A DNA stretch of 59,586 nucleotides from Candidatus Chloroploca sp. Khr17 (GTDB lineage: Bacteria > Chloroflexota > Chloroflexia > Chloroflexales > Chloroflexaceae): positions 33,982 through 93,567 of the forward strand of contig NZ_RYFF01000020.1 in NCBI RefSeq assembly GCF_004138165.1. The letters are read 5' to 3'. Under the pieces are notes generated by a model. The model ran no database searches, had not been told where the DNA came from, and saw nothing but the letters and a program-made list of their open reading frames with translations. Positions 3,001 through 28,157 of the stretch are shown one piece after another (position 1 is the stretch's first letter; each line of letters opens with the position of its first letter). The position numbers were made by a program, and so were the translations under genes.

Positions 3001-5646
3001 GGTGGAAGTGCCGGTGCGTGGGGCACAGGGCTGCAGAGCGCCGAGATCTATGATCCGGCCACAGGAACCTGGACGCCCACGGGCAATATGAGCCAGGCTC
3101 GTTTTGCCCATACAGCGAACCTGCTGCCCAATGGCAAAGTGCTGGTTGCTGGTGGTGAAGGTGCTGGTTGGCTTGCCAGCGCCGAGATCTATGATCCGGC
3201 GACGGGCACTTGGAGTAGAACCGGTAATTTGCAGCGTGGACGGTCAATGCATACGGCAACGCTGTTGCCCAATGGCAAGGTGCTGGTTGCTGGTGGGTAC
3301 GGCGGCGGCGATCTTGCTAGTGCCGAACTCTATGACCCGGTCACTGGTCAGTGGAGCACCACCGGGAGCATGAAGACGGCGCGGATGCGCTATCCGGCGG
3401 TGCTGTTGACGAACGGCAAGGTGCTGGTTGCTAGTGGCTCGCAGTTTGGCGGGGGCACCTATCCAACGACGACTGGCGCCGAGATCTATGATCCCGCAAC
3501 TGGTCAGTGGAGTGACACCGGCAGCCTGAATATCTCGCGCCACCATCATCAGGCAGTGGTGTTGCCCAATGGCAACGTGCTGGTCGCCGGCGGCCAGAAT
3601 CTTCCGAATGCGAATAACGTGTTGAGCGCCGAGTTGTATGATCTGGCGAGCGGTCAGTGGAGCATGACCGCCTCGATGCAAGAGCCTCATACCAATATTG
3701 GTCCGATGGCGGTGCTCTTGTCAAATGGTCAGGCGCTGATGAGTGGCGGTGGGGCTCAGGAGTTGGGCAACGCGATTGTGCTGAGTGAACTCTACAATGC
3801 GACGACAGGTACCTGGAGTCGTACTGGTGATCTGCGTGAGGGTCGAAGTTCGCATGCGGTGGTGGTGCTGAACAATGGCTTGGTACTTGCTTCTGGTGGC
3901 TTCACAACCTATGGCGTTGGCCTGGCTACGGCCGAACTCTATGCGGTTGCGCAGAACCCTGGGGCGATCACGGTTGATGCCATCACACCACGCGAAGGTT
4001 CCGCCGGTCAGACGATCCGCGTGACGGTGCAGGGCACTGGTTTTGCCACGACACCGCCACCGACGGCGCGGCTCGTTGGGGTGGCAGGCTCATTTGCGCT
4101 GACCGAGGTCACGGCGCAAGGTGCGACCAGTTTCGCGGCAACGGTGCCGGCGACGGTGCCGCCTGGTGCATATGATCTGGTGGTGGACACAAATGGGCAG
4201 ACCGCGACCTTGCCCAACGCCTTCACGGTGCTGGCCGCCGCCCCGGCGGTGACCAGTGTCTTGCCACCGTCGGCGCTGAATGATGTTGAGACCGAGATGC
4301 TGGTGCAGGGGCGCAACTTTGCGGCAGGCGTTGGCGTGCGCCTCGGCACGACCAATCTTGAGACGACGCGCATTGATGGTGCAACGCTGCTCGCGGTGGT
4401 ACCGGCGGGTCTTGCGCCGGCAATCTACGACGTGGTCGTGACGAATCTCGGTGGTGGCGAGGCGCAACTTGCGCAAGCCTTCACCGTGGTTGATGCGACT
4501 GATGCAACCTTCGATGACCTCTTTAGCAGCAGCGATCAGCTTTGGATCAACCCGGTCTTGCCACGGGCGAATGAGCCTTTTGAGGTGGGTCTGGTGGTGC
4601 AACGCAGTGGGGGCAAGACGACCCTCACTGATATACCGGTCACCTTCCGCCGTGACTCGGTGACTGGCCCAGTCTTGGGCACGGCGACGGTGCCGTTCCT
4701 CGATCCACCGGCGAGCAGCGAGAGTACCACGCCGCTGAGCATCACGCTGCCAAACGCTGGGATCGTGACGCTCTATGCGATCATTGATCCCGAGGGCACG
4801 CTCACCGAAAGCACGACGACCAACAATGTGATCAGCCGGACGATGCTGGTGGCGGTGGCCGCCCGTGACCAGACGCCACCAGTCGTCACTGGCATTGGCA
4901 TCAATGGGGGTGCCGCGACGACCGTCGTGACCCGCGGCATAACGATCAATATCAGCGCTCTTGACCCATCGCCAAATGCCAGCGGGGTGCGGTCAGTCCA
5001 TGTGATCGAGTATGTCTACAACGAAGGCGCGCAGCGCTGGGTGCCGATGGCGAGTTCGGGCTGGTTGCCCTACAACCAGACGCCCGAAAGCTACCGCTGG
5101 ACCCTGGCACCGTTGCCAGGCATGCACTACCTGCAGGTACGGGCGCGAGACATGGCGAACAACATCTCGATCGGCCAGGCGCGTCGCTTGATCACCTACG
5201 AACCAGCAACTGACCGGATCAGGCGACGCCAGACGCGCATCTACCGCTATGAGGTCGGGGCGGGCCAGGAATTCCGGGTCAACCTGGATGTACTCTCGGG
5301 CGATGCGGATCTCTATGTCTGGTCATCTGATCCGCAGCAATCGGCCTGGGTGAGCAACCTGCCAGGCAGCGCCGACGAGCAGGTGAGCATCCCGGCTAGC
5401 CAGGTGGTACCGGGAGTGTACCAGGTCGAGGTCTACGGCTACACGGCGGCAGAATACCTGCTGACCACCTCGCTTGGCGGTACTCCGGCGTCGGCGCAGA
5501 TGTTGGGTGGTGGACTGGCCCAAGCGAAAGATTTGCCTGTAGCACCGTTGTTGCCAGTGAATGCGCAGCCGGATGCGCTGGTAGGCGATGTACCGCCAAT
5601 CGAAGCCGAGGTCTATCGGGTGTACTTGCCGTTGAGCTTGCGGTAA
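1..5646 (+). CDS. Giant secreted multidomain surface protein, 5' end cut by the window edge. Domains: beta-helix repeats, CarboxypepD_reg-like, PT linkers, 3x ~159-aa repeat, 7-blade Kelch propeller, IPT/TIG-like, PPC-like.
   Basis: The frame is open from nt 1, and the residues before the first Met at 34 (PAAGNWVWIRF) continue the repeat pattern. Motifs seen: 'YTVGGRVTFDGVGLAGVTVSDG..GDYTLTP'; PT-rich linkers (ATSVPPTATSTST); seven blades of type 'GRxxHTATLLPNGKVLVAGG'; 'ITPREGSAGQTIRVTVQGTGF'; 'SGDADLYVWS'. The protein ends ...RVYLPLSLR*. Confidence 0.8.
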   Translation, partial: PAAGNWVWIRFMPESAGSHLRYVRVSYGGNTYGRSLDVQTSALLVEDSTIVRSNGSGIYNEGGTVTVRNSALLDSTSGAQVSGGQLLIENSLISGNSEGVAVSGSPAVTITNSSLADNSSYGVNNSSTTVMVQAGNNWWGAASGPYHPTLNAAGQGARVSDRVVFSPWLGAPPAGVERRYTVGGRVTFDGVGLAGVTVSDGTRSAATDASGVYLLNAVPVGDYTLTPARAGYSFTPATRAISVTNDLSGQDFSATTTSGPSPTPTATATSVPPTATSTSTATSVPPTATSTSTATPTTTSVPPTPTATATGGPSATPTPTIVAAPICGATVQEVNGTINGVVTWTAGTVYVLNDVYVNSTATLIIQPGTVIKGRANSRLRVDGRLFADGTVANPIYFTSYYDDSLCGDTDGNGALPPPAAQDWGFIQFNSISNDTSSLTRAVLRYGGKGQDTAASGVVRLVDAGPNLANLSMSQNYRNGAELVYTGSGWNTTTLNSPSVVYWLSSALVVNANQTLTLGPGVKVKGAALSRLIVNGTLTADGTVQAPLVFSSEKDDTVCGVGASDEPVCDMDNAVATPTAQNWGYIQFGAGSNDISSLTRAVLRYGGLGQDTAASGVVRLVDAGPNLANLSMSQNYRNGAELSYTGAGWNTATLNSPSVVYWLSSALVVNANQTLTLGPGVKVKGAALSRLIVNGTLTADGTAQAPLVFTSEKDDTVCGVGAADEPVCDMDNAVATPATQDWGFIQFSAGSNDTSSLTRAVLRYGGKGQDTAVGGVVRLLDAAPTLSYNLLRTNYGGVELLNGALPALTCNDFEQNQQFGMRNALPATAVTAENQWWGRATGPTHAGNAGGNGDVVSDGVDYNPWRSMPCTYTGEPTPTPTVTTTSQPTATATATSVPPTATATATSVPPTATATSVPPTPTSTATSTTVPPTPTGTATATATSVPPTATATATATSVPPTPTTTPMPTVEPGTWQATGSMQTGRAWHTATRLADGRVLVAGGSAGAWGTGLQSAEIYDPATGTWTPTGNMSQARFAHTANLLPNGKVLVAGGEGAGWLASAEIYDPATGTWSRTGNLQRGRSMHTATLLPNGKVLVAGGYGGGDLASAELYDPVTGQWSTTGSMKTARMRYPAVLLTNGKVLVASGSQFGGGTYPTTTGAEIYDPATGQWSDTGSLNISRHHHQAVVLPNGNVLVAGGQNLPNANNVLSAELYDLASGQWSMTASMQEPHTNIGPMAVLLSNGQALMSGGGAQELGNAIVLSELYNATTGTWSRTGDLREGRSSHAVVVLNNGLVLASGGFTTYGVGLATAELYAVAQNPGAITVDAITPREGSAGQTIRVTVQGTGFATTPPPTARLVGVAGSFALTEVTAQGATSFAATVPATVPPGAYDLVVDTNGQTATLPNAFTVLAAAPAVTSVLPPSALNDVETEMLVQGRNFAAGVGVRLGTTNLETTRIDGATLLAVVPAGLAPAIYDVVVTNLGGGEAQLAQAFTVVDATDATFDDLFSSSDQLWINPVLPRANEPFEVGLVVQRSGGKTTLTDIPVTFRRDSVTGPVLGTATVPFLDPPASSESTTPLSITLPNAGIVTLYAIIDPEGTLTESTTTNNVISRTMLVAVAARDQTPPVVTGIGINGGAATTVVTRGITINISALDPSPNASGVRSVHVIEYVYNEGAQRWVPMASSGWLPYNQTPESYRWTLAPLPGMHYLQVRARDMANNISIGQARRLITYEPATDRIRRRQTRIYRYEVGAGQEFRVNLDVLSGDADLYVWSSDPQQSAWVSNLPGSADEQVSIPASQVVPGVYQVEVYGYTAAEYLLTTSLGGTPASAQMLGGGLAQAKDLPVAPLLPVNAQPDALVGDVPPIEAEVYRVYLPLSLR
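1495..2448 (+). repeat. Near-identical in-frame 477-nt (159-aa) tandem duplication inside the giant CDS. A more diverged third copy lies at ~1018-1494.
   Basis: 'gtcgtctactgg' followed by 'gagcagtgcgctggtggtgaatgccaaccagaccttgacgct' occurs at 1495 and again at 1972 (offset 477). The protein units 'VVYWLSSALVVNANQTLTLGPGVKVKGAALSRLIVNGTLTADGT...' are almost identical. Confidence 0.9.
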
Positions 5647-5662
5647 GAGTGCGTTTGGATGC

Positions 5663-6184: not shown

Positions 6185-9100
6185 ATGCAAGCCTCGTCGC
6201 GCCCTTCTCTTTCACCACGTTCATTGATCTTTTTGGGTCTGCTTGTTGTTGGTCTTGTGCTTGTTGGCTTTGCGCCCTTTGCCAGAGCCGCGCCGGGCTT
6301 CCCTACGGCCCCCGAGACGTTTGATGGTACCAGTCTTCCTTCTGGCTGGACTGTCGTCAATGTCCGCACTGATGCCCCCTATCCGATTGATGACCCCTAT
6401 CCCTTGCCCAATGATAGCCATGGATGGCGCTTTGATAACCCCGGAGCACGCCGGAATGTGACTGGTGGCACGGGTAATTTTGCCATTGCTGATAGCGACC
6501 ATGCTGGTCGTGGCAAAACGATGGATACGCAGTTACGCACGCCAACGTTCAGCCTCGAGGGCGTTGCTGCGGCCCGTCTCCAGTTCAATACCACCTTTCG
6601 TGCCTATGATCAGTCGACCGGCGATGTCGATCTGAGCATTGATGGTGGGCAAACCTGGACGACGATCTGGCGTACGACGAGGACGGTGCATGGGCAAGTC
6701 AAGGTCACCCTGCCCGCCAGTGCGCTCAATCAAACCAAGGTCAAGGTACGCTTCCGCTACTATAATGCCACCTGGGACTGGTACTGGGCCATTGATAATG
6801 TTGCCATTGTTATGGTTAATCTCCCCAATCCACCCGATGGCTTGCAGGCGACGCTCAAGGGTAGCGAGATTCAGTTGAACTGGAATGCCGCGCCCAATGT
6901 AAGCCGCTATGTCATCGAGCGTTCGCCTGATGGCACGAACTGGGCGACGATCGCTGAGGTTTTTGGTTCCCAGACACGGTTCACCGATACGCAGGGCTTG
7001 GTCTGTGGCCTCCCTTATCGCTATCGCCTGCTGGCGCGCAATGTGGCCGGCCTGTCACAGCCAAGCGCACCCGTAACCGCGACGACCGCCTCGTGTGATC
7101 GCCCGACGACGCTCAATGAGACTTTTACGGCCACCACGCTGCCTAATGGCTGGACAGTCGCGCCATCCTCGGGGGCGACCTGGTCGTTCAATAATCCGGG
7201 TGGACGCTTGAATTGGACCGGGGGGACAGGCAATTTTGCGGGTGTCGATAGCAACCGCGCTGGTGGTGCGTCGGTGGATGCCTCACTTGTCTCGCCTTCC
7301 CTCAACCTGAGCGATCAACCCAGTGTTGTCTTGCAATTCAAGACTTTTTTCTGGGCTTATCGACGGGCGACCGCTGGGGTTGATGTCAGTACCGATGGCG
7401 GAGAAACCTGGGTCAATGTCTGGCGACGAACCGGGTTGTTTTGGGGTCCCGTCACGCTCGATCTCTCTTCACGGCTGGCCGGCAAGAGCGTAGCGATGGT
7501 GCGCTTCAGCTACTCCACTCATGCGTACAATAATTCGTACTGGCAGGTTGACGATGTGCAGTTGCTGGCGATGAGCCCACCTGTCGCGCCGACCAATTTG
7601 CGTGGTTCCCTCCTGACTTCAGGTGACATAAGTCTCACCTGGGATGGCCGTGGGAGCCAGACCTTTGAACTGGAACGGGCGCTCGGCAGCAGTGGCAGTT
7701 TCCAGAAGATTGCCGAACTTGATCACGGCGTCACGAGCTTTATTGATACGACGGTTGCCTCGGAAACGCTCTATCGCTACCGTGTTCGTTCACGCAACGC
7801 GGTCGGCGTCTCGGCTTATAGCAATCTTGTTTCGCTCACCAGTGGCAATCGCAATGTACGAATGATTGACATAACAATTTCGTATTACGCGAATAGTGCG
7901 ACGGCACAGGCTCGCCGCCAGGCGATCGAAGCGAACGTGCGCTACTTTGCCGATAGCATCTACGAGATGTCCAACGGGGCGAATAAACTTCGTCGGGTGA
8001 CGATCTATACGGGTGGTGCCTTTGCCAATCAGGCGGATATTGTCTGGGTCGCGAATTGCTGGCCCAACGCCCATCTTTCAGGCTATGGCACGCCAGGGTT
8101 GCGCATTCAGCACTGTGATACGTTCCATGCGGCCAATTTCATGAACAGTGAGGTTGGCTATCGTCAAGGTGGCTATGTCCTTGGTCATGAAATGGGCCAC
8201 TACTTCTACTCGGTCTACGATGAATATCGGGGCAGCAGCCCGTCGACAGCCTGGATTGGTTTTCCGCGCTTGACTGATACCCCGGTGAATAACTCAGTAA
8301 TGAATAGTCAGTGGTATGCTGTGGACGGCAATCTCAACTGGCTCAACTTCTCGACTCTACGCAACAATACCGGCAATACGGCGCAGCACCGGGTCTATGC
8401 TGCCAGTGCCTGGCAAACCCTTGCCCGCCCCTTGTACCAGGATCCACGCAATGGTACACGGATGACGGCACCGGTGCGCCTCTTCCATCCTGAACTGGCG
8501 GCGGTTGCGCCGGCATTAGGGCAGGCGCCACGGATCGATCTGACCAGTCCCACTGCCCAGGCCAATGCACGCAACGCATTGAATTTCGTCTGGGTTGGCC
8601 AGTCAGGGAGCCCGCGCCTGCAGCAAGCCAATGCTGAAATGGCACTGCAGTTTGTGGTGGACACCTCGACGCAGATGAGCGAGGCGCAACTGGCTTCGAT
8701 CAAGGCGAATCTGAAGAATCTGGTTGACCAGGCGGCTGACACGACGATGATCGGCCTGCTGACCTATGCCGATACGGTGACGGTTGTGCAGCAGCCGGTG
8801 CTGCTCGACAGCGAGGCGAGCCGTACCGCGCTCAAGGCAACGCTTGATGGTCTGATGCTGAGCAATAGCGCTGCCGTGTTGACCGGCGAAGCGTTGGAAG
8901 CCGCGCTGGGGGTTGAGGGTGCTGCCGGTATTCCCGACAACGCGGTGCGTGCGGTCTATCTCTTTAGCGCCGGGATGTATACGGGCGCAAGCCATCCTTT
9001 TGCGCAGGTTGGCGCGTATCAAGATGCCGCCGTTACGCTAGAGACCTTTGATCTGGGACGCGATCCGCAACTTGCGGCAGAACTCTTCCAGATCGCGACG

Positions 9101-10432
9101 GCAACTGGCGGCGACTACTTTAGTGTCGCCGATACGACCGCCCTGCAGATGGGCTTGCGTGACGTGACCCATCGTGTATCACCCGTCGTTGACGTAGGCA
9201 TCGCCACCGGCTCGGGTGAGATGACGAATGGCACGCCGTATGAGGCGACCTTCTATGTTGATGCCAGCCTTGGCACCCTTGATCTCGATGTGATCTTCAG
9301 TGGCCTGCCCGCTGAGGCTACGCTCACGCTCACGCGACCTGATGGCACTGCGAGTGGAGCCATCTTTGCAACCTCTGGTGTTGATGATGGTTTTGGTGGT
9401 CAGTTTACGCTGGCCAGCACGCGCATCACTAATCCCGCCCTTGGTACCTGGACAGTGCGGGTGACCACAACGAGTGCCCGCAGCCGTGTCGCCTTCTGGG
9501 CTGACGGTGCGCCGCAAGCCGATGAAGGCACGTTCTTTGCCCACGTTCGTTCGCTGACGGGCAAGACAATCGCCGCCCCTGAGGCGCTCTTGATCGATGC
9601 GATGGTTGCCCAAGACTTCCCGATCACTGGTGGTGGTATCCGTGGCGAAATCACGCTGCCTGACGGCACGACCGTGCCGGTGGTCTTTACCGATGATGGC
9701 GTGGCCCCCGACTTCCTGGCGAATGATGGGCACTACAGTGCACTGATTGATTACCGGGGTGACGGTGCCTATTCCATTGCGGCCTTTTTCGATAACGACA
9801 ACGGGCAAGCCGTCTTTACCGAAGAGGCGGTTGCCCCATCCACGGCGCCCGATGGCTCCGTCCGGGAAGCTCAGACCTACCCGGTCGAAGGCAACTTCCA
9901 GCGGTACGCCACCACGAAGGTCTTTGTGACGGGATGGCAACCTGACGATCACGCGGATGATATGTTCGCGGCAACGCAGGTGTCGCCCGATAACACCCCG
10001 TTTGATGGGCGCATTGATCGTGCCGGCGACGTTGACATCTTCAAGGTTGACGTACCGGCTGATTACAGCGACGCGCTGGTACTGCGCATCGCGCAACTGG
10101 CCTTGGGCATGGATCCGGTTCTGACCGCCTTTGACACCGATGAGACCTGGTCAATCGACCGCTCGCTCGCCGATGCCACGGGTGACATGATCAGTGTCAG
10201 CCTGCCGAATAGTGCAGGGACAACGGTCTATATTGCGGTCAAGCATCACAACGCCGCCGCAACCACTGGCCTCTACGAGCTATCGGTGGGGCCACTGCTC
10301 GCCAATGAAGTGCCGGGTAACCTTGATCCAAAAGGTGCAGAGAATGCAATCTTCCTGCCCATGCTCCGGGTACCGGCACAAGGTATCCCGAATGCAGTGC
10401 ATGCGGTCTATCTGCCGCTTACGCTCCGGTGA
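6185..10432 (+). CDS. Giant secreted zinc metallopeptidase-like protein. Domains: 2x lectin/MAM-like module plus FN3, HEXXH, vWA-like, PPC-like.
   Basis: ATG 6185 lies 7 nt after 'aaggtga'. Signal peptide 'LIFLGLLVVGLVLVGFAPFARAAP'. Duplicated 'GWTV...F(D/N)NPG...TGGTGNFA..DS' modules are each followed by an FN3-like segment ('LNWNAAPNVSRYVIERSPDGTNW'). 'HEMGH' at 8185-8199. 'LQFVVDTSTQM' is vWA/MIDAS-like. 'RAGDVDIFKV'. Ends ...AVYLPLTLR*. Confidence 0.8.
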   Translation: MQASSRPSLSPRSLIFLGLLVVGLVLVGFAPFARAAPGFPTAPETFDGTSLPSGWTVVNVRTDAPYPIDDPYPLPNDSHGWRFDNPGARRNVTGGTGNFAIADSDHAGRGKTMDTQLRTPTFSLEGVAAARLQFNTTFRAYDQSTGDVDLSIDGGQTWTTIWRTTRTVHGQVKVTLPASALNQTKVKVRFRYYNATWDWYWAIDNVAIVMVNLPNPPDGLQATLKGSEIQLNWNAAPNVSRYVIERSPDGTNWATIAEVFGSQTRFTDTQGLVCGLPYRYRLLARNVAGLSQPSAPVTATTASCDRPTTLNETFTATTLPNGWTVAPSSGATWSFNNPGGRLNWTGGTGNFAGVDSNRAGGASVDASLVSPSLNLSDQPSVVLQFKTFFWAYRRATAGVDVSTDGGETWVNVWRRTGLFWGPVTLDLSSRLAGKSVAMVRFSYSTHAYNNSYWQVDDVQLLAMSPPVAPTNLRGSLLTSGDISLTWDGRGSQTFELERALGSSGSFQKIAELDHGVTSFIDTTVASETLYRYRVRSRNAVGVSAYSNLVSLTSGNRNVRMIDITISYYANSATAQARRQAIEANVRYFADSIYEMSNGANKLRRVTIYTGGAFANQADIVWVANCWPNAHLSGYGTPGLRIQHCDTFHAANFMNSEVGYRQGGYVLGHEMGHYFYSVYDEYRGSSPSTAWIGFPRLTDTPVNNSVMNSQWYAVDGNLNWLNFSTLRNNTGNTAQHRVYAASAWQTLARPLYQDPRNGTRMTAPVRLFHPELAAVAPALGQAPRIDLTSPTAQANARNALNFVWVGQSGSPRLQQANAEMALQFVVDTSTQMSEAQLASIKANLKNLVDQAADTTMIGLLTYADTVTVVQQPVLLDSEASRTALKATLDGLMLSNSAAVLTGEALEAALGVEGAAGIPDNAVRAVYLFSAGMYTGASHPFAQVGAYQDAAVTLETFDLGRDPQLAAELFQIATATGGDYFSVADTTALQMGLRDVTHRVSPVVDVGIATGSGEMTNGTPYEATFYVDASLGTLDLDVIFSGLPAEATLTLTRPDGTASGAIFATSGVDDGFGGQFTLASTRITNPALGTWTVRVTTTSARSRVAFWADGAPQADEGTFFAHVRSLTGKTIAAPEALLIDAMVAQDFPITGGGIRGEITLPDGTTVPVVFTDDGVAPDFLANDGHYSALIDYRGDGAYSIAAFFDNDNGQAVFTEEAVAPSTAPDGSVREAQTYPVEGNFQRYATTKVFVTGWQPDDHADDMFAATQVSPDNTPFDGRIDRAGDVDIFKVDVPADYSDALVLRIAQLALGMDPVLTAFDTDETWSIDRSLADATGDMISVSLPNSAGTTVYIAVKHHNAAATTGLYELSVGPLLANEVPGNLDPKGAENAIFLPMLRVPAQGIPNAVHAVYLPLTLR

Positions 10433-10455
10433 AAGATGGGCGCTGCGTTAGATCC

Positions 10456-13433: not shown

Positions 13434-13480
13434 GCCGTCTCCAAGCTAAACTACTCACCGGTGTGGACAGTTTAGCCCCC

Positions 13481-13534
13481 GGGAGCGCGGGCGGCTCGCC
13501 CGCAAGTGCTTGCGGGCAAGTCGCCCGCGCTCCC
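13481..13534. repeat. Imperfect 26-bp inverted repeat in the sucA-sucB spacer (REP-like element or attenuator/terminator).
   Basis: 'gggagcgcgggcggctcgcccgcaag' / 'cttgcgggcaagtcgcccgcgctccc', with 2-3 mismatches. Confidence 0.6.
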
Positions 13535-13599
13535 AGGCGAAGGGTGAACAGTTACGCTTCAAATAGGGTGTTTTGTGAGTGACTTTGCGGAGCAAGCAT

Positions 13600-14928: not shown

Positions 14929-14935
14929 TCCGTTT

Positions 14936-14981
14936 GTGCGTCGTGCGCGGTGCCAGCAAGCTGGCACCGCGCACGACGCAC
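14936..14981 (+). terminator. 22-bp perfect hairpin 8 nt after the sucB stop.
   Basis: 'gtgcgtcgtgcgcggtgccagc' - aa - 'gctggcaccgcgcacgacgcac'. Confidence 0.55.
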
Positions 14982-15021
14982 AGGGTAGTCGAAGCGATCG
15001 GCCTATTGAGGAGCAACACTG

Positions 15022-16323: not shown

Positions 16324-16334
16324 CGGGGTAGGTG

Positions 16335-17681
16335 ATGCAAAATCATTTCTTTTATCGTGGCCCGATCCGTGATCGGCGCTACCTCTATGGGCGCGAGCCG
16401 CTGCTCGAGCGTGCGCTCGCCTTCATTACCTCTGGACAGAGTGTGGCGCTGATTGGCCCGCGACGCATTGGCAAGACCTCGCTGCTACTTCAGCTTGGTG
16501 ATCCAGCGTTATATGCGCAGATCGGGCATGAGGTCAGCAGGCTCCATTGTGTCTACCTCGACTGCCAGAGTCTCATTCAGGCTAGCCCTGAGATGATCTA
16601 TGGGCGGCTACTTGCCGCGATCGGCGAAGGATCGGAGGCTGCTTCAGCGGGGTGCCGTGCGGATGGCAGCGAAGGCGTAGCGTTTGCCCAGTTCGAAGCA
16701 GCCATTGAGTACGCCAGCTCCAACGGCTATGCGTTGATTTTTTTGCTCGACGAGTTTGAGAGTTTGCTTGCGAATACGCAGCTTGATCATGCTTTCTACA
16801 CGAGTCTGCGGGCACTAGCTACAACGCAGAGGGTCGTCTATGTGCTTGCTTCGTCGTGCCCCTTGCTTGAACTCGACCATGTGCATCTTGAGGCGTGGAA
16901 CGTCGCGTTGCTCAACGACTTTGCAGTTATTCACCTGGGGTTACTCTCGGTTGAAGCGAGTCGTCTGCTGTTGCAAGAGTTGTCAGCGCGAAGTGGTTTT
17001 GCCTTTGATGAACCGTTGATCGAACAGTTGCTTGAACTGGCCGGCTGCCATCCTCTCTTGCTCCAGATCGCCGGTTACCATGCGATCGATTTGCTGAAGA
17101 CCGATGAGCTCCAGCATTCTTGTGATGTGCAGATGCTCGAGCGTGCCTTTCTGAGCGAAGCCGCCGCACAATGGAGTGCCATGTGGCATCGGTTGAACCT
17201 TGAGAGTAAACAGATGCTGGCCCTCTTTGCGCTGCTCGCCCCGACCTATCCAGCTGCGGTGCGTCGCCTCGAAGCCTGTGGTCTTGTGATGCAGGGGGCC
17301 GATGGGCAACCAACGCTGCTCTCGGTAGCCTTTCGTCGTTTTGTCGCGGAACAAGAGGTTCCCGGCGTGATCCAAGTGCCACCGGTGACGCTTGTGCCGT
17401 CACTCAAGACAGCCCTGTTGCGCGGTGAGCCATTGCCCTTGCCGCCGCAGCAGTTTGAGCTCTTGAGCTATCTGGTCGAGCATCGCCAGCGCATCGTCTC
17501 ACGTGAAGAATTGACCGCGGCGCTCTGGGGGCGTTACGATGCAGCGAGCCTTGAGAGTCTGCGTACCGCGTTGCGCAGTCTGCGCGAGGCGCTGGGCGAA
17601 GACCAGGGCTGTATCCAGATTCTCCGCGGGCACGGCTGCCAGTTTGTTGCGCTCGATCTTCCGGTTTTGCTCCTCCAATGA
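16335..17681 (+). CDS. AAA/P-loop ATPase fused to a C-terminal OmpR/PhoB-type winged-helix DNA-binding domain (transcriptional regulator).
   Basis: Walker A 'GPRRIGKTS' and Walker B 'FLLDEFES'. C-terminus 'LPPQQFELLSYLVEHRQRIVSREELTAALWG...LRTALRSLREAL' is trans_reg_C-like. The start lies 9-12 nt after the lysA stop. Confidence 0.7.
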   Translation: MQNHFFYRGPIRDRRYLYGREPLLERALAFITSGQSVALIGPRRIGKTSLLLQLGDPALYAQIGHEVSRLHCVYLDCQSLIQASPEMIYGRLLAAIGEGSEAASAGCRADGSEGVAFAQFEAAIEYASSNGYALIFLLDEFESLLANTQLDHAFYTSLRALATTQRVVYVLASSCPLLELDHVHLEAWNVALLNDFAVIHLGLLSVEASRLLLQELSARSGFAFDEPLIEQLLELAGCHPLLLQIAGYHAIDLLKTDELQHSCDVQMLERAFLSEAAAQWSAMWHRLNLESKQMLALFALLAPTYPAAVRRLEACGLVMQGADGQPTLLSVAFRRFVAEQEVPGVIQVPPVTLVPSLKTALLRGEPLPLPPQQFELLSYLVEHRQRIVSREELTAALWGRYDAASLESLRTALRSLREALGEDQGCIQILRGHGCQFVALDLPVLLLQ

Positions 17682-20134: not shown

Positions 20135-20207
20135 GACAAGGGGGCCATAGGCCCCCTTGTCTCACGTTCAGCCTTCGGCTAGGGAGGTGGGGGCCTACGG
20201 CCCCCAC
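20131..20207 (+). terminator. Two consecutive GC hairpins. The first overlaps the stop codon of the 17951-20134 gene.
   Basis: 'gtgagacaagggggcc ata ggcccccttgtctcac' (20131-20165) and 'gtgggggcc tac ggcccccac' (20187-20207). Confidence 0.55.
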
Positions 20208-20240
20208 GCCCTGCTGGGATAGCGCAGGAGAAGCAGCATC

Positions 20241-23200
20241 ATGACACGGATGACCTCGTATGCGCTTGGGATCACGATGGTGGGCTTGATCGGCCTGCTG
20301 GTAAGCCTGGGAACCGCACTTGGGGCGGCATCGAGTCGTAGCGGGACTCAAGCCTTTGCGCTAGCCTCAGGTATACGAGCGCCCCTCTCTCCTGCCCCTA
20401 TCGGGACGCCCATCGCTGTATCGCACGGTGTGGCGGATACGACGTTGCCGGATCTGGTGATTACGGCGCTTAATCTGACGCCATCCGACCCTGGCGAGGG
20501 AGGTACTGCCGATATTGAGGTGGTGGTCAAAAATCAGGGCACCGCCGCAACGTCGGGCCGCTTCACTATCTATCTCTATGTTGAACCGACCGATGAACCG
20601 CCAACTGAGCAGACTGAGTATACGACCTTTGCTGGCTATGCGCTGACGTTGCCCCCCGGGGGGACGTTTAGCTTTACCCGGTTTGACCAGCAATTTACGC
20701 GCACACCGCCGACGGTCTATGCCTGGGTTGATCCGCCATGGGAAAATTTCATTACCGAGTTAAATGAAGCAAATAATCTCTTTCCACAGGTTGCTACTGG
20801 GGTTGATACCTTTGAAGATGATGATACGTGTGTTCAGGCGAAACCCATTCTAACCGATGGGACGCCACAGAGTCGCAATTTCTTTCCGAATTCGGGGCGT
20901 GAACGTGATGTTGATTGGGTGACGTTCAATGCGGTCGGTGGTGTCACCTATGCGGTCGAAGCGAGTCCGACCGGCGTTGATGCTGATCCAATTATTGAAC
21001 TCTACAGTACCTGTACAGGGGCACCGAGTTTTAGCAATAAAGTCATTACCGAATTCACTGCCCCTGCCGATGGCCCGATCTTTTTGCGGGTTCTTAATAA
21101 CAAGACCGACGCTGGGCCTGATCATCCTTACACGCTTCAGGTAACGAACGATAGCGCCTGCCCGAATTATTTCGAGCCAAATAATAGTGCCGCTACCGCT
21201 GGCGATTTGCCGCTTGCGACCGTGCAAACTCACAGCTTTTGCAAGCCTGCCGATCACGACTGGGTACGCCTGGCGGTTGAGGCGGGGGCCAGTTATCGTG
21301 TGGTTGCGACGAACGTCGGGCCACGAGCGAACGCGATCCTTGAACTCTATCGTACGCTTGAGGCGGCAACGAGTGCGGCAAGCGGGGCTACCATCGAGTT
21401 TATTGCGGCAGAAACCGGCCATGTCTATCTCAAAGCGGCCCAGGTTGAGCCTGAGGTTGCTGGTAGTGGCACTGAATATACCCTGCGCGCCGAGCGTCTG
21501 AGTGCCTCGGGGTGTACGCCGGATAGCTTTGAAGATGACGATACGCTTGAACAGGCCGGTTCAATTGCGGCTGATGGAACCACCCAGACGCGCAATGTCT
21601 GCCCTGAAGGCGATCTGGATTGGATCAGTTTTACGGCCAATGCGGGAACGACCTATACCATCGAGACGCTGAATCTGGGTGAAGCGGCTGATACCGTGAT
21701 GTGTCTGCATACCAGCACTGGTGAACAGATCGCGTGTGATGATGATGGCGGCACCGGCAAAGCCTCGCGCCTGAGCTTTGAACCGCCCGTGAATGGCAGC
21801 TATCTGTTGCAGATCAAGGATTTCTCGCCAACTGTTGCGGGTGATCTGACCAACTACGATCTCAAGGTGACACAACGCATTTGTCAGCCCGATGTCTTTG
21901 AGGATGATAATAGCCGTGATAGTGCGCGGGTCGTTGTTGTTGGAAGCGCAGCAACCAACCGCAACTTCTGCCCGGCAGGTGATGAAGACTGGATCGCCTT
22001 TGTCGCTGACGAAGGCAAAAATTATCTGGTCGATGCGATTGCGCTCGGTGCCGAAGCCGATACGCTCGTTGAGTTGTACGACGCCAACCAGGTCTTGCTC
22101 GCGCTCAATGACGATTTTACCCCCGGTACCAGTTCGCAGGTGAGTCTGGCCGAGGCTCGTGCAGGCAACTATTTTGTCCGGGTACGCCAGTATAATCCGA
22201 GCTACCAGGGCATCGGCACCGAATATTCGTTGCGTGTCCGCGAAGGTACTGCGGTACCTCCGCCGACGCCTTCCCCTGGCCCAACCCAGGGACCCTCGCA
22301 ACCCCCAGGGGAGACCGACGTGCGGACGTTGATCCTCTTCAACGAGACGCGTTTTGGGCAGATCCATAGTGTCGTCGAGGCCACTGAAGTTTTGACGCGC
22401 CTTCAGGCTTTAGCGCAACATCCGCAGGTGAGCGGCGAGCTTGTTTTGCTTGACGATAATGCCCAGGTTCAGGCTGCTTATGCCGCCTGGACGGCCGATC
22501 TTGGCAATGTCGAAAAAGCGAATCAGGTGACGGCCGCCATTCGTGCGGTTGTTCTGACCTATCAGCAACAGCGGAGTGGCCTCGCATATCTGGTGCTGGT
22601 TGGCGATGATCGGGCGCTTCCGATGCGGCGCATCTTCGATACCACCCCACGCTCATCAGAACGAACCTATCCGCATGTCAGTACGAACAATCCCGCCGGA
22701 GTGGCCCTCAAGGAGAACCACTATCTCACCGACGACTACTTTTCAGATCGCGAGCCAGCCGAGGTTAACGGGCGCGAGCTCTTCATCCCTGATCTCGCCA
22801 CCGGACGCCTAGTTGAAACGCCTGCCGAGATCATCGCTCAGCTCGACGCCTTTCTCGCACGCCAGCGCACCACAGTGACCAATACCTTGATCACTGGTTA
22901 CGATTTTGTGCAGGATCTTGCCGCGGCCGATTGCGACGACTGGCGAGCCGATCTGGGCATTCCCCGCATTGATTGCACGCTGATCGGCGATACCTGGACG
23001 GGCGATCAACTGCGTGCGTTGCAACCACGCACAACGTCGCCGTTTAATATTCAAATCTTCAATGGTCACGGAACCCACTATGCCCACGGGGTACCGGTGG
23101 GCAATGCGTTGCGCGCCAACGAGGTTGCCGAGGGCACCGCCGATCTACGTGGTGGCCTGATCTATTCGCCCGCCTGTCATGCTGGACTCAATTTGCCCCC

Positions 23201-24395
23201 GGCCAATGAAACGAACCCGCTTGATCTGCCGCAGGCCTTTGCCGGTCGCGGGGCCAGTTATATTGGCAATACCGGCTATGGCTGGGGTATGCGCAGTGCC
23301 GTCGGTCTCTCGGAACGCATGATCCGGCTCTATACGCAAGAACTGCTCAAAGGCACGCGGGCGAGCATGGGCCAGGCGCTGGCGACAGCAAAAAGCCTCT
23401 ATTTTCAGCAGGGCCAGTCTTTTTCCAGTTATGACGAAAAGGTGATGCAGCAACTGGTCTTTTATGGCTTGCCGATGTATGAAATCGAGACCGGGGCGGT
23501 GCTCTCGGGCCCGGGCAATGAATTCCCCGGGGTCGGGTTCACCCCGATCCTGCCGGGTGGCGGCGCCGCACTGATGAGCAATGGCTCAGTCTTGACCGGC
23601 TCGGTGGCGATTGACTTTCGCAACGCCGAGAATCTTGCGCTGTCAGAGACCGACGATGGCGGCTATTATGCGTTGAATGGTTCGGTGCAGACGGTACCGG
23701 GCTTGCCAGTGCAGCCGTTGCACTTTGGCAACGTGACGGCCCCCAACCTGGAGGCTCGCGGAGTCTTGTTGCTCGAGGCGACCTATCAGGAAGCCGAGCC
23801 GTTCGATCCGCTCATTGCGGCCCCCTTCAACGAATATCAACCCGATAATGAGCCTGGCGAGCTGGCCCAGGCCCGTGGGCTCTTCCCGCTTGTCCCAGTC
23901 TCGATCCAGCGCCATAACCAAACGTCGAGCCTGGTAACGCAACTTGGCCAGTATGATGCGGATCTGGGATCTTTGCGCCTGCTGAACGACGTCAATGCCG
24001 AAATCTACTACAGCCTCTCAGAGGAGCAGTTTTCACGCGAAACGACCGTCATTGACGGCATTACCCGTGTTGGCACTCCTCAGGTCGAAATTAAAGTTGG
24101 TACTGTTGAAGTTGCCGGGATCGAACGAGTTGTCTTGTCGTATATTCAAGACATCAACCAGGCCGCCCGCCAACTGCAATCAATGGATCTCACCTACGAT
24201 CCACGCTCACAAAAATGGGTTGGCTCGTTCCAGGGTGACACCAACTCGCGCTATCTCGTTCAGATCGTTGACAAGGCGGGCAAGATCACCGTTGCCGCCA
24301 ACAAAGGCCAGTATTACACTCCGGGCCTCGTGACTGCCGCACCGGATACGTCGTGTACCGGCCGTTGTGTGTTCCTCCCGCTGGTGAGTCGTTGA
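20241..24395 (+). CDS. Giant secreted clan-CD, gingipain (C25)-like cysteine peptidase with a CARDB-like domain and about five PPC-type domains.
   Basis: SD 'aggaga'. 'LPDLVITALNLTPSDPGEGGTADIEVVVKNQG' is CARDB-like. A repeated 'FEDDDT/N...DxDW(V/I)xF' module occurs five times. His 'FNGHGTHY' (~23064) and Cys 'SPACHAG' (~23175) form a His/Cys dyad in C25 order. Ends ...CVFLPLVSR*. Confidence 0.7.
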   Translation: MTRMTSYALGITMVGLIGLLVSLGTALGAASSRSGTQAFALASGIRAPLSPAPIGTPIAVSHGVADTTLPDLVITALNLTPSDPGEGGTADIEVVVKNQGTAATSGRFTIYLYVEPTDEPPTEQTEYTTFAGYALTLPPGGTFSFTRFDQQFTRTPPTVYAWVDPPWENFITELNEANNLFPQVATGVDTFEDDDTCVQAKPILTDGTPQSRNFFPNSGRERDVDWVTFNAVGGVTYAVEASPTGVDADPIIELYSTCTGAPSFSNKVITEFTAPADGPIFLRVLNNKTDAGPDHPYTLQVTNDSACPNYFEPNNSAATAGDLPLATVQTHSFCKPADHDWVRLAVEAGASYRVVATNVGPRANAILELYRTLEAATSAASGATIEFIAAETGHVYLKAAQVEPEVAGSGTEYTLRAERLSASGCTPDSFEDDDTLEQAGSIAADGTTQTRNVCPEGDLDWISFTANAGTTYTIETLNLGEAADTVMCLHTSTGEQIACDDDGGTGKASRLSFEPPVNGSYLLQIKDFSPTVAGDLTNYDLKVTQRICQPDVFEDDNSRDSARVVVVGSAATNRNFCPAGDEDWIAFVADEGKNYLVDAIALGAEADTLVELYDANQVLLALNDDFTPGTSSQVSLAEARAGNYFVRVRQYNPSYQGIGTEYSLRVREGTAVPPPTPSPGPTQGPSQPPGETDVRTLILFNETRFGQIHSVVEATEVLTRLQALAQHPQVSGELVLLDDNAQVQAAYAAWTADLGNVEKANQVTAAIRAVVLTYQQQRSGLAYLVLVGDDRALPMRRIFDTTPRSSERTYPHVSTNNPAGVALKENHYLTDDYFSDREPAEVNGRELFIPDLATGRLVETPAEIIAQLDAFLARQRTTVTNTLITGYDFVQDLAAADCDDWRADLGIPRIDCTLIGDTWTGDQLRALQPRTTSPFNIQIFNGHGTHYAHGVPVGNALRANEVAEGTADLRGGLIYSPACHAGLNLPPANETNPLDLPQAFAGRGASYIGNTGYGWGMRSAVGLSERMIRLYTQELLKGTRASMGQALATAKSLYFQQGQSFSSYDEKVMQQLVFYGLPMYEIETGAVLSGPGNEFPGVGFTPILPGGGAALMSNGSVLTGSVAIDFRNAENLALSETDDGGYYALNGSVQTVPGLPVQPLHFGNVTAPNLEARGVLLLEATYQEAEPFDPLIAAPFNEYQPDNEPGELAQARGLFPLVPVSIQRHNQTSSLVTQLGQYDADLGSLRLLNDVNAEIYYSLSEEQFSRETTVIDGITRVGTPQVEIKVGTVEVAGIERVVLSYIQDINQAARQLQSMDLTYDPRSQKWVGSFQGDTNSRYLVQIVDKAGKITVAANKGQYYTPGLVTAAPDTSCTGRCVFLPLVSR

Positions 24396-24424
24396 CCTAA
24401 GCTTTGTGACAAAGGGTGACTGTT

Positions 24425-25918
24425 ATGCGTATGTTATTCACGGCCGTGCTGGTCTTTGCCGTCGTTGTGCTCGTTGCGACGACGCGCTATCCAGCCGAAG
24501 CTCAGGGAACCTTGAGCGCCAGTACCAGTTTCAACTACCAGGGTGTGCTGACGACTGATGGAGCACCAGCCAGTGGAAGCTTCGATCTGCGCTTCATTCT
24601 CTACACTGCTGCCACCGGCGGCTCGCAAGTTGGTGCGAGTCTTTTGCGCGAGGATGTCACGGTCAACCGTGGGCTCTTTGTGGTAGCGCTTGATTTTGGA
24701 GATGTCTTTGATGGCGACCCGCGTTTTCTCGAAATTGCGGTGCGCCAGGGTGGTTCCACGGGTGAGTTTACGATCCTTTCGCCCCGCCAGGAACTGACCA
24801 GCGTGCCGATGGCGATCTTTAGCCAGAATAGCGTCAACAGCCAGAATAGCGTCAACAGCCAGAATAGTGTCACGAGCGAAAGCACCAATGCTTTGCGTGA
24901 GCAACCCATCGCCGAGACTGCGCCAACCAGCGGCCAGGTCTTGAAGTGGAACGGGACAGCCTGGTCACCGGCGGCTGACAATAATACAACCTACAGCGCT
25001 AGTACCGGGTTATCGCTTGCAGGCACCACCTTTAGTGTCAACTTTGGTGGCAATGGCAGCTCGAGCCTCATAGCCCGGGCGGATCACACCCATCTTGGCT
25101 CATTGTGGCGCGGTGATGTTGGGTTCACCGCGCTGTGGGTCGAAAACCAGTCGACGGTGAGTGGCGCTTCGGGGGTGGTCGGCATCAGTGTCGCGGCGAA
25201 CGGCTTGAGTGGGCGGAGCACGTCGGGCAACGGCGTGAATGCGGTCAGCACGTCGGGGAATGGGGTGAATGCCAGCAGTTCCACAGGTACCGGTGTGCGT
25301 GGCGTCAGTTCGGCTGACAATAGCGTCGGGGTCTGGGGTCGCAATAGTTCCGGGGGATGGGGTGGCTATTTCGAGGGTCGTGTCACCGTGGTGGGCACCT
25401 TGAGCAAGTCGGGCGGCTCGTTCTTGATTGATCATCCGCTCGATCCGGCCAATCGCTATTTGAGTCACTCGTTTGTCGAGTCGCCCGATATGATGAATGT
25501 CTACAATGGCAATGTCGTGCTTGATGCCAACGGACGCGCCGAGGTCACGTTGCCCGACTATTTCGAGGCGCTCAATATCGAGTACCGCTATCAGTTGACG
25601 CCGATTGGCGGCGCGGCCCCCAATCTGCATATTGCCGAAGAGATCGTTGACAACCACTTTGTGATTGCCGGGGGTTCAGCGGGGCTCAAGGTCTCGTGGC
25701 AGGTGACGGGCATTCGCAATGACCCGTGGGCACGCGACAACCGGATCATTGTTGAGCAGGAAAAGATCCCGGCCGAACAGGGCACCTTCCTCTATCCAGG
25801 GGCGAATCCTGACGTGACAGTACAGCCGCAAACAACGCCTGGCGAGCCAGGGCCAATGGTCCCGGCTTCATCTGGTACGACGGTAGATGTCCCTGCGCCT
25901 GCTGATGTGTCCCGCTAG
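24425..25918 (+). CDS. Secreted tail-fibre-like / repetitive adhesin-like protein with a conserved C-terminal 'IDHPLDP' domain.
   Basis: N-terminal TM/signal sequence. 'FNYQGVLTTDGAPASGSFDLRFILY' and 'GQVLKWNGTAWSPAAD' are motifs I associate with tail-fibre-domain proteins. Gly/Ser/Asn-rich repeats 'TSGNGVNAVSTSGNGVNAS'. C-terminus 'GGSFLIDHPLDPANRYLSHSFVESPDMMNVYNG'. The start is ambiguous (GTG 24416, ATG 24425 or ATG 24431). Confidence 0.6.
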   Translation: MRMLFTAVLVFAVVVLVATTRYPAEAQGTLSASTSFNYQGVLTTDGAPASGSFDLRFILYTAATGGSQVGASLLREDVTVNRGLFVVALDFGDVFDGDPRFLEIAVRQGGSTGEFTILSPRQELTSVPMAIFSQNSVNSQNSVNSQNSVTSESTNALREQPIAETAPTSGQVLKWNGTAWSPAADNNTTYSASTGLSLAGTTFSVNFGGNGSSSLIARADHTHLGSLWRGDVGFTALWVENQSTVSGASGVVGISVAANGLSGRSTSGNGVNAVSTSGNGVNASSSTGTGVRGVSSADNSVGVWGRNSSGGWGGYFEGRVTVVGTLSKSGGSFLIDHPLDPANRYLSHSFVESPDMMNVYNGNVVLDANGRAEVTLPDYFEALNIEYRYQLTPIGGAAPNLHIAEEIVDNHFVIAGGSAGLKVSWQVTGIRNDPWARDNRIIVEQEKIPAEQGTFLYPGANPDVTVQPQTTPGEPGPMVPASSGTTVDVPAPADVSR

Positions 25919-25937
25919 CGATGGAAAGGCAAGCCTC

Positions 25938-28157
25938 ATGCAACGCACATCGCTTTTCGGGGTGATTATTGGTGGCTTGTTGCTCGTGCTGACGATCACG
26001 ATGGTGGCGGCCCAGGCCGGTTTTGGCTTGCCGTGGGTAGCGGTCAGTGGTGGCGGCGGCACGAGTAGCAGCGGCTCGTTTGCGGTTCAAGGTTCGGTTG
26101 CATATGACAGTAGCCCACCCCTGAGCAGTGGCGTCTACACGCTGACCGGCGGTTTCTGGCCCGGCCTCAATGACGAGGCCCCGATGTTGAGTGCCGTCGA
26201 GCCCACGGCAGCGCGCAGTGTGGTGCCAGTTGCGTTGGCGCTGACGGGCAACTATTTTCAAGTTGGGGCGACCGTGACGCTCGGCACGACGGCGCTGGAA
26301 AATGTGACGACGATCAGCGCCTCGCGCATCGAAGCGGTGATCCCCGCCGGGGTAGCTGCCGGGGTCTACGCGCTTGAGGTGCGCAACCCCGACGGGCAGA
26401 GTGTCACGCTTGATGATGCCTTTACCGTCGAATTGCCCAACCTGCGCATTTTGCAAGTCCAACCTGATCAGGGTGCCAATCAGCAACCCGTCGAGATTGT
26501 CATTGCCGGCGAGGATTTCTCGCCAGCGGCTGAGGTTCGGCTTGGTGAAACGCCGCTGACCGTCATCCACGATAGCACGACCCGCATGCGCGCAACGGTG
26601 CCGGCTGGACTTGACCCGCAGGCCTATCCATTGACCGTGATCACGCCCGGGGTCGCTCAGGCAACGCTTGAGAATGCCTATACCGTCGTGGTACAGGCTT
26701 CAGCGGGGGCCGACAATTTTGAGCCAGACAATACCTGTGCGACCGCAAAAACGATTAGCATTGACGGCGTCGCCCAGGCGCGCACGTTTCATCGTACCGA
26801 AGATGTTGACTGGGTCGCCTTCAGCGCCGAAGCAGGACGGCGCTATCTACTGGTAGCTCGCCCACCCGCAGGTTCCCCCGCCAGTCTTGCGGTCGAACTG
26901 TATGATCGGTGCGAGAGCGACCCAACAGGTGGGCAGAATAACACCTTTAGCAACGGCGTCAGCATCTCGTTTGATGCTGCAATCACAGGCACGATCTACC
27001 TCAAGGTGATCAACCGCGATCCAAGCATCTTCGGATCAGAGGTCGCGTACGACCTCTCGGTGCGCGATCTCACGACGATCACCACCGCTGAGGCGCGAGG
27101 TGCAGTGATCATTGTTGCTGGCAAGTTGCGCGACAATGATGATGTGCAACAGCAGATCCACGGGGTCGCACGCAATGCCTATCAACTCTTCCGCGCCAGC
27201 GGGTATGACGACGATCATATTCAGGTACTGGCGACTGATCCAACGCTGGATGGGTACGATGCCCCGGCCACGCTCACGAACCTGCGCAACGCGATCACCA
27301 GCTGGGCGCGTGAACGGGTCGTCTCGAGTAGCCCCCTGACCATCTACATGGTTGGCCATGGTGACGAAAATCGTTTCTATGTTGATGAGACTGCGGGGCA
27401 GCAGCGTCTCGAACCCGAGCAACTCAACGAGTGGCTGAATCAACTCGAAACAGCCCGCCCCGGACTCAAGGTCAATCTGATCATCGAAGCCTGTTTCGCC
27501 GGCAGCTTCATTCTCGACCCGGGCAGCCTCAGCAAAGTCGGGCGGGTGGTCATCGCCTCATCGCCTGCCGACAACGTGGCCTATGCCTCGCCCGAGGGGG
27601 CCTATTTCTCGGATACCTTCCTTGCGTCACTCGCCTCATACAGTCTCTACGAGAGCTTTCTTGACGGCAAAGCGATTGCCCGTGCGACCTATCCCGACCA
27701 GATCGCCTGGCTGGACGATAACGGGAATCGGGTGCCGAACGAAGCCGCCGACGGGCAAGAAGCGCAGCAGCGGAGTTTTGCGCTTGCAACCCTGAGTGAC
27801 GATCTCAACTTCCGCCCGCTCATTGTCGAAGCGACCTTTGTGCGCACCGAGGGCAGCAATGGTACCATCAGTGCGGTGGTACGCGACGATCATGGCGTCG
27901 AAGAGGTCTTTGCCCAGATCTTCCCACCCTCATACCAACCACCCGATCCACAGTCAGGGCTGGTCACGGTAGCCGTACCCTTTGTCACCCTGACCCCGCT
28001 GGGCAATGATCGGTACAGCGTAAGCTACGACGGCTTCACCGAAGAAGGTGACTATCGCCTTGTCATCCAGGCCCGCGACAATGACGGATCCAATGCCTTG
28101 CCCGCTATTGCCACCACGGGCGGGCAGCGGGTCTATTTGCCATTGACGATCAGGTAG
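25938..28157 (+). CDS. Secreted clan-CD, legumain (C13)-like cysteine peptidase with IPT/TIG-like and PPC-like domains.
   Basis: ATG 25938 gives the signal peptide 'LFGVIIGGLLLVLTITMVAAQA'. Two 'P..A.....V.V.LTG..F' IPT-like units. 'FEPDNTCATAKTISIDG...DVDWVAFSA' is PPC-like. 'YMVGHGD' (~27354) and 'IIEACFAGSF' (~27486) match the C13 His/Cys motifs. Ends ...RVYLPLTIR*. Confidence 0.7.
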   Translation: MQRTSLFGVIIGGLLLVLTITMVAAQAGFGLPWVAVSGGGGTSSSGSFAVQGSVAYDSSPPLSSGVYTLTGGFWPGLNDEAPMLSAVEPTAARSVVPVALALTGNYFQVGATVTLGTTALENVTTISASRIEAVIPAGVAAGVYALEVRNPDGQSVTLDDAFTVELPNLRILQVQPDQGANQQPVEIVIAGEDFSPAAEVRLGETPLTVIHDSTTRMRATVPAGLDPQAYPLTVITPGVAQATLENAYTVVVQASAGADNFEPDNTCATAKTISIDGVAQARTFHRTEDVDWVAFSAEAGRRYLLVARPPAGSPASLAVELYDRCESDPTGGQNNTFSNGVSISFDAAITGTIYLKVINRDPSIFGSEVAYDLSVRDLTTITTAEARGAVIIVAGKLRDNDDVQQQIHGVARNAYQLFRASGYDDDHIQVLATDPTLDGYDAPATLTNLRNAITSWARERVVSSSPLTIYMVGHGDENRFYVDETAGQQRLEPEQLNEWLNQLETARPGLKVNLIIEACFAGSFILDPGSLSKVGRVVIASSPADNVAYASPEGAYFSDTFLASLASYSLYESFLDGKAIARATYPDQIAWLDDNGNRVPNEAADGQEAQQRSFALATLSDDLNFRPLIVEATFVRTEGSNGTISAVVRDDHGVEEVFAQIFPPSYQPPDPQSGLVTVAVPFVTLTPLGNDRYSVSYDGFTEEGDYRLVIQARDNDGSNALPAIATTGGQRVYLPLTIR

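Follow-up and report, generated by a model that had tools for sequence, protein, structure and literature searches.

YLP-box tails and internal boxes on large exported proteins of Candidatus Chloroploca: a putative sorting motif and a peptidase cassette

The window analysed here is a 59,586-nucleotide stretch of Candidatus Chloroploca sp. Khr17 DNA (contig NZ_RYFF01000020.1), whose host is placed in the Chloroflexota, Chloroflexia, Oscillochloridaceae. Six-frame translation shows that a shared tail, V-[YF]-L-P-L-x-x-R-stop, closes four open reading frames (ORFs) on the + strand, with the motif starting exactly eight codons before the stop in 4/4 cases. The motif is already known as the curated YLP-box of NCBIfam. 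The four proteins and their boxes are the following.

1-5646, + strand: ORF1, more than 1881 residues; beta-helix, Kelch propeller, CARDB and PPC domains
5620-5643, + strand: YLP-box tail VYLPLSLR-COOH (context RVYLPLSLR) at the end of ORF1, the most divergent of the four
6185-10432, + strand: ORF2, 1415 residues; signal peptide, choice-of-anchor J, FN3, VWA and choice-of-anchor X domains
10346-10369, + strand: near-terminal first box AIFLPMLR of ORF2, about 20 residues before the terminal copy
10406-10429, + strand: YLP-box tail VYLPLTLR-COOH (context AVYLPLTLR) at the end of ORF2
20241-24395, + strand: ORF3, 1384 residues; signal peptide, CARDB, PPC repeats, C-terminal half without an assigned domain
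24369-24392, + strand: YLP-box tail VFLPLVSR-COOH (context CVFLPLVSR) at the end of ORF3
25938-28157, + strand: ORF4, 739 residues; signal peptide, TIG/choice-of-anchor Z, PPC-like module, Peptidase_C13-like domain, Ig-like domain
28131-28154, + strand: YLP-box tail VYLPLTIR-COOH (context RVYLPLTIR) at the end of ORF4

ORF1 is truncated at its 5' end by the window edge, its N-terminus lying outside the window, and a linker of about 60 residues separates its last domain from the tail. ORF2, ORF3 and ORF4 carry signal peptides, and choice-of-anchor J, X and Z domains are found among the tail proteins. ORF3 has the same sequence as WP_129673468.1, and a 727-residue protein described below the same as WP_129673466.1, both being proteins of Candidatus Chloroploca sp. 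Khr17. The longest possible ORF4 start, at 25887, overlaps the preceding gene; the start at 25938 is likelier because the orthologues begin there, with MQRTSLFG. The C13-like domain of ORF4 (around 27100-27750) scores 30.6 bits for Peptidase_C13 (Pfam ID PF01650; gathering cut-off, 22.8; E value, 3.3e-7) and keeps both catalytic motifs, HG (VGHGD, 27351-27365) and EAC (IEACF, 27483-27497). From this score and the His-Gly/Glu-Ala-Cys dyad, the domain is predicted to be a Peptidase C13. The AlphaFold2 model of the ORF4 C-terminal module is poor, with a predicted local distance difference test (pLDDT) score of 55.6, and adds nothing to this assignment.

Tails, family models and breadth

The pattern [VIL][YFW]LP[LMVI] has only six matches within long ORFs of all six frames, these being the four tails, AIFLPMLR and an internal VVYLPVVT (19385-19408). 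Two other matches, at 14144 and 49504, lie two to three codons past a stop, outside long ORFs. Based on the window's own amino acid frequencies, 1e-5 such C-termini are expected by chance among the 29 genes, and the probability of four or more is about 5e-22. A looser tail expression yielded one chance match in about 5200 control ORFs (1.4 Mb, loci of 80 other genomes). The tail codons vary at synonymous sites among the window copies, indicating conservation at the protein level and no DNA repeat. The tails are genuine and highly non-random.

An earlier note, made from the letters alone, had placed the four tails and the two additional copies at these positions, and the six-frame translation bears it out, far beyond chance in the case of the tails. 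Its description of four unrelated proteins is accurate for the regions just before the tails, which differ, but PPC/TIG-type modules are shared. Its remark that the tail is devoid of an LPXTG- or PEP-CTERM-type transmembrane segment also stands, the tail being 8-9 residues in all. What did not survive is the novelty of the motif, which the earlier note itself had made dependent on the absence of an existing family definition, as two NCBIfam models already define the YLP-box.

These models, NF050076 (sort_motif_YLP) and NF053834 (ultrashort_CTERM), are 10-11 positions long, both titled "YLP-box putative sorting motif-containing protein", and match the tails so that model and protein end together; the motif is the same as that of the window. 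Scanning the full-length proteins against NCBIfam gave only domain matches, and the tail models were revealed by scanning the last 40-47 residues. The curated cut-offs are 15 bits for NF050076 and 10 bits for NF053834. The ORF2 C-terminus lies above both, with 17.0 bits for NF050076 on the terminal tail and 18.3 bits for NF053834, where the best match is AIFLPMLR. ORF3 and ORF4 reach 12.5 and 12.8 bits for NF050076, under the cut-off, and neither matches NF053834, while the ORF1 tail matches neither model. The consensus tails from metagenomes described below pass the cut-offs, with 16-18.7 bits for NF050076 and 14-17.9 bits for NF053834. In the window tails, S/T or V-S replaces the consensus [VI]-[LR], which explains why ORF3 and ORF4 are sub-threshold and ORF1 is missed. 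Such divergent tails escape the current cut-offs, and the proteins carry only generic domain names, as is the case for the Chloroploca tail proteins in RefSeq. All four window tails end at the stop codon and thus at the extreme C-terminus, and the box recurs on exported proteins, with four tails in the window, four to five in locus L002, and two in locus L205 of a Caldilineaceae metagenome-assembled genome (MAG).

A DNA-pattern scan of metagenomes for V-Y-L-P-[LF]-x-x-R-stop gave 120 loci. Of the matches, 49 close long ORFs; the 70 found in junk ORFs provide an internal control. At the positions left free by the pattern, the 49 tails have V/I/A at -3 (43/49), L/R/M/V/A/I at -2, and R/H/K at -9 (27/49), whereas the 70 chance matches have random residues there. 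The resulting consensus is [RHK]-V-Y-L-P-L-[VI]-[LR]-R-COOH, of which the window tails are divergent versions, and additional tails were found in the metagenome loci independently of the search pattern. The tail hosts known by name are Chloroploca spp. and the one Caldilineaceae MAG. A strong association exists between the box and export signals at the N-terminus: a signal-peptide-like N-terminus is found on 25/31 tail proteins versus 29/117 other ORFs of the same loci (Fisher p = 2e-8). The tail proteins are also about twice as long as those other ORFs.

The sequences before the tails are diverse and include beta-helix/choice-of-anchor Q ends (DIGAYE...), C25-like ends (FGDPALKL), Ig-like ends, and P/T-rich linkers of 0-60 residues. 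The YLP-box can be described as a linear motif of 8-9 residues, [RHK]-Phi-[YF]-L-P-[LM]-Phi-x-R-COOH (Phi, hydrophobic residue). It is conserved as protein sequence, and unrelated domains or flexible linkers precede it at the very end of the chain. Three ORF4 orthologues (P0001-P0003), with 95%, 59%, and 38% identity, end in RVYLPLTLR, LYMPLVAKP, and KVFLPTLLR, respectively, and the most distant of them, P0003, carries a second box 20 residues upstream of its terminal one. Its contig encodes five consecutive secreted multidomain proteins ending in IYLPMSTR, IYLPATTR, VFLPTLLR, LILPIIRMQR, and VFVPAAMR. In Chloroploca sp. M-50, the gene order is as in the window, and the tails are CVLLPLVSR and RVYLPLTLR. 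Across these orthologues and those of the Caldilineaceae MAG, the tail is kept while the flanking sequence diverges. The M-50 orthologue of ORF3 (L204 1931-6091) has L in place of the box aromatic (CVLLPLVSR), indicating that the tail drifts within the genus.

Internal boxes and a peptidase cassette

The internal match of the window lies in a secreted, zymogen-like protein encoded upstream of ORF3, which has the following features.

17951-20134, + strand: zymogen-like protein WP_129673466.1, 727 residues; signal peptide, large N-terminal region, linker with the internal box, C10-like cysteine peptidase domain
19385-19408, + strand: internal YLP-type box VVYLPVVT in a disordered linker, about 20 residues ahead of the peptidase domain and retained by Chloroflexota orthologues
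19469-20131, + strand: clan CA, streptopain-like (C10-like) cysteine peptidase domain with invariant Gln, Cys, His and Asn

The C10-like domain has no Pfam match (including Peptidase_C10) and no PDB sequence match. Its AlphaFold2 model, with a pLDDT above 90, predicts a papain-like fold with catalytic Cys and His plus Gln and Asn, and Q87, C93/C97, H233, and N264 are invariant across 23 C10-like sequences. A YLP box is found 55-70 residues before the catalytic Cys in 39 members of the family, within the disordered junction linker. The logo of these internal boxes is [R/Q]-V-[YFW]-L-P-L-[VI]-[TLS]-[R/K/N/G], followed by G/S/N-rich sequence. Homologues without a box exist in Hyalangium and as leaderless 217-residue forms, one of them from a Thermoplasmata archaeon. 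Compared with the C10 zymogens streptopain (SpeB) and interpain A, the window protein differs in the missing Pfam and PDB sequence matches of its peptidase domain, in a much larger pro-region with a YLP box in the junction linker, and in belonging to a family with leaderless standalone 217-residue forms in other phyla. The standalone leaderless proteins of about 217 residues begin with MSWTYYWA (within P0297-P0313). The family comprises 361 representatives at 50% clustering, yet has no Pfam model.

Further boxes away from the very end are found in L198, where a near-terminal box lies 24 residues from the protein end, and in L089, where an internal box separates a beta-helix from a GH114-like domain. 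Double boxes occur in ORF2 and P0003.

The Caldilineaceae MAG (GCA_019637645.1; L205 6658-21149) encodes a counterpart of window positions 17951-28157. It includes an NHL and C13 protein whose last 490 residues are 41% identical to ORF4 and which ends in QLFLPLVTR, two C10-like paralogues, each with an internal box, a 1443-residue PPC and C13-like protein ending in AYLPMVNR, and an orthologue of ORF3, the CARDB/PPC giant. A C13 module with a tail, a C10-like zymogen with an internal box, and a CARDB/PPC giant are thus common to two Chloroflexota classes. The conserved linker boxes, the divergent tails below the cut-offs, and this cross-class cassette are new details of the YLP-box, and the internal boxes and the cassette provide concrete candidates for experiments.

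A putative sorting and retention tag

The YLP-box can be compared with the tripartite sorting signals LPXTG/sortase, PEP-CTERM/exosortase, PGF-CTERM/archaeosortase, GlyGly-CTERM/rhombosortase, and MYXO-CTERM/myxosortase. These are likewise C-terminal on surface proteins with signal peptides, present in many copies per genome, and joined to interchangeable choice-of-anchor domains. A tripartite signal combines a signature motif with a transmembrane helix and a cluster of Arg residues, and 20 residues is the smallest length described (bioRxiv 10.1101/2023.06.07.544157). The YLP-box, with 8-9 residues against at least 20, is devoid of the helix and the Arg cluster, two of the three defining parts, and also occurs internally. 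TIG homologues in Myxococcota carry Cys, transmembrane, and Arg-cluster C-terminal signals where the YLP-box would sit, so that the box fills the slot held by tripartite signals in homologues from other phyla.

In two of the four window tails, the L-P core resembles LPxT; however, V or I usually stands at the T position, as in the metagenome consensus, with no G next. Only two to three residues follow LPx[STV], without Gly or a transmembrane segment, and the tails do not match TIGR01167. A sortase substrate was therefore rejected. The tails likewise lack the features of PEP-CTERM, GlyGly-CTERM, PGF-CTERM, and MYXO-CTERM signals and have no NCBIfam match to those models, nor do they match the C-terminal domain of the type IX secretion system (T9SS; TIGR04183), a beta-sandwich of about 80 residues, the tail being disordered in the models. 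The YLP-box is the shortest proposed prokaryotic sorting tag and is the only one among those compared that has no membrane segment; its reader must therefore work unlike sortases, exosortases, and rhombosortases.

Direct membrane anchoring by the box was also rejected. Seven hydrophobic residues broken by a central Pro cannot span a membrane, and the box is thus probably read as an exposed peptide. Box and linker have pLDDT values below 50 in AlphaFold2 models, suggesting that they are exposed and outside any fold. For a modular, exposed, export-associated terminal peptide standing in place of tripartite anchors, a retention or sorting tag is the best reading, and we lean, with moderate confidence, towards the YLP-box being a modular post-export sorting/retention tag on Sec-type signal-peptide proteins of Chloroflexota. 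The earlier note, which proposed a candidate sorting/anchoring or processing signal, is right in outline, in that the tail behaves as a modular tag of this kind on proteins that are exported. The protein would be exported and the box then displayed as an exposed peptide, which a putative envelope-located receptor or enzyme might read after translocation, thereby keeping large proteins, adhesin-like or equipped with peptidase domains, attached to the multilayered filament envelope. A box in an inter-domain linker would tether the upstream part of the protein likewise, and the adjacent ATP-binding cassette (ABC) permease described below would play no role. Filamentous Chloroflexota have an outer layer and an S-layer-like protein layer (bioRxiv 10.1101/2025.08.19.671072), which are a plausible destination for the tail proteins. 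The question touched here is how Chloroflexota retain large adhesins and peptidases on a multilayered envelope without an outer membrane.

Several observations speak against a sorting and retention tag. A few tails have 1-24 extra residues after the box, and boxes are also internal. A free C-terminus is hence no strict requirement, and a processing site would fit as well as a binding tag. The curated cut-offs leave out three of the four window tails, the NCBIfam label is only "putative", and our literature search found no paper mentioning the motif, nor any on Chloroflexota sorting signals; the proteomics supplements of the Litorilinea paper contain no YLP-box peptides. No receptor or enzyme was found in the tail loci, where all-against-all clustering of 253 ORFs revealed no recurrent tail-less neighbour and hence no candidate enzyme by adjacency.

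The main rival reading, possible although on the unlikely side, is that the box is instead a cleavage-and-attachment site for sortase-like transpeptidation by a soluble or surface cysteine peptidase. The cut would fall within or just after the box, releasing a tiny C-terminal leaving group or a downstream domain, and the upstream protein would be passed to an envelope acceptor, with the C13-like (legumain/glycosylphosphatidylinositol [GPI] transamidase clan CD) or C10-like peptidases of the cassette as candidate enzymes. For C13 transpeptidases, such as butelase and GPI transamidase, the C-terminal signal is very short, and the T9SS sortase PorU, a peptidase of clan CD, carries the sorting signal itself. 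The YLP-box resembles the butelase N-HV tag and the GPI transamidase omega site in being a very short C-terminal signal, and the clan CD peptidase genes of the cassette carry the signal themselves, as in PorU. Boxes at C-termini and at domain-boundary linkers, as in L089, fit this explanation, as do the double boxes, the cassette kept between Chloroploca and the Caldilineaceae MAG, the retained HG and EAC motifs of ORF4, and the 39 boxes at one C10-like junction, compared with about 2.6 expected by chance (a hand estimate from typical residue frequencies). However, known C13 enzymes have Asn/Asp as the P1 residue, which the C-terminal boxes do not offer at any plausible position; the link between enzyme and substrate is putative here, and the roughly 80-residue C-terminal domain fold of T9SS cargo is missing. 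The C13 and C10-like proteins bear boxes themselves and may be mere cargo, and in most tail loci no peptidase of these kinds is encoded near the tail gene. The C10-like family also exists without boxes in Myxococcota and Thermoplasmata, and AlphaFold2 left the box disordered and undocked from the active site, which makes a dedicated sorting role for the C10-like peptidase less likely. We regard as rather unlikely a sortase-like system free of membrane segments, in which a soluble or surface clan CD (C13-like) or clan CA (C10-like) peptidase of the cassette would cut at terminal and linker boxes alike, transfer the upstream protein to an acceptor in the outer envelope layers of filamentous Chloroflexota, and by the same event activate box-bearing zymogens. 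The position of the internal box between the pro-region and the catalytic domain of a streptopain-like zymogen, together with R or K at position 7 in a third of the internal boxes and the G/S/N-rich flexible sequence that follows, might point to a protease-maturation or linker motif that marks clip sites, for instance for zymogen activation, without a sorting role and with the terminal copies as remnants. This seems improbable, as cutting at the last eight residues would be pointless, yet terminal boxes are the commonest and are strongly constrained, even at unsearched positions, and are found on many families without a downstream domain. The tail might also be structural, forming either the last beta-strand of a C-terminal domain that the proteins share or a strand for oligomerisation. 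This would agree with the Ig-like domain common to ORF4-type proteins just before the tail, but it is very improbable given the unrelated preceding sequences across families, including long P/T-rich or low-complexity linkers, and the disorder of the tail in AlphaFold2 models.

The remaining alternative concerns the membrane protein next to ORF4, which the earlier note had suggested as a cognate processing or anchoring factor.

28246-30030, + strand: ABC-2 type permease (PF16949 ABC_tran_2/12TM_1), 154.5 bits against a cut-off of 25.7, E value 6e-45

The permease gene and ORF4 share a strand, with the former 89 bp downstream, and it also lies there in Chloroploca M-50. Its product is an ordinary ABC-2 permease, 50-65% identical across Chloroflexales. 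In Oscillochloris trichoides, the permease gene stands immediately behind an ABC ATPase gene in a housekeeping context, and none of the genes called in that locus is similar to the window's large secreted proteins; the four ORF ends that were read there have no tail. In Chloroploca, no ATPase gene stands beside the permease. The permease does not recur beside tails in the metagenome loci or in the Caldilineaceae MAG neighbourhood, and an active site within the membrane would be out of reach for a box without a transmembrane segment. A role as the cognate enzyme is thus extremely improbable, and the candidate was rejected on family identity, distribution, and the O. trichoides context.

Other genes of the window

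Between the tail genes, positions 10638-17681 encode sucA, sucB, lysA, and a STAND-NTPase/winged-helix (Trans_reg_C) regulator. As these housekeeping genes interrupt the tail genes, the latter do not form a single uninterrupted operon. The gene lying between ORF3 and ORF4 (24416-25918) encodes a 500-residue exported protein that is conserved in Chloroploca M-50. This protein lacks a tail and matches no family; SVNSQN repeats occur in it, and its C-terminal region (FLIDHPLDPANRYL) is conserved.

A ubiquitin-like conjugation island occupies positions 38974-52735 on the - strand and includes the following genes.

38974-41787, - strand: HerA/DUF87-like ATPase
41807-43315, - strand: SPFH protein
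43230-44453, - strand: ThiF/E1
44465-45928, - strand: JAB
45867-46322, - strand: E2
47366-49150, - strand: TPR protein
50021-52735, - strand: JAB fusion, 904 residues

The E1, E2, and JAB proteins of the island match PADLOC accessory type models of the cyclic oligonucleotide-based antiphage signalling system (CBASS), and no cyclase was seen. Just beside the island, at 36-39 kb, the GC content falls to 0.48. Near the right end of the window, a radical SAM/SPASM-domain protein (57170-58513, - strand) adjoins small unassigned ORFs, a neighbourhood that may represent a peptide-maturase context.

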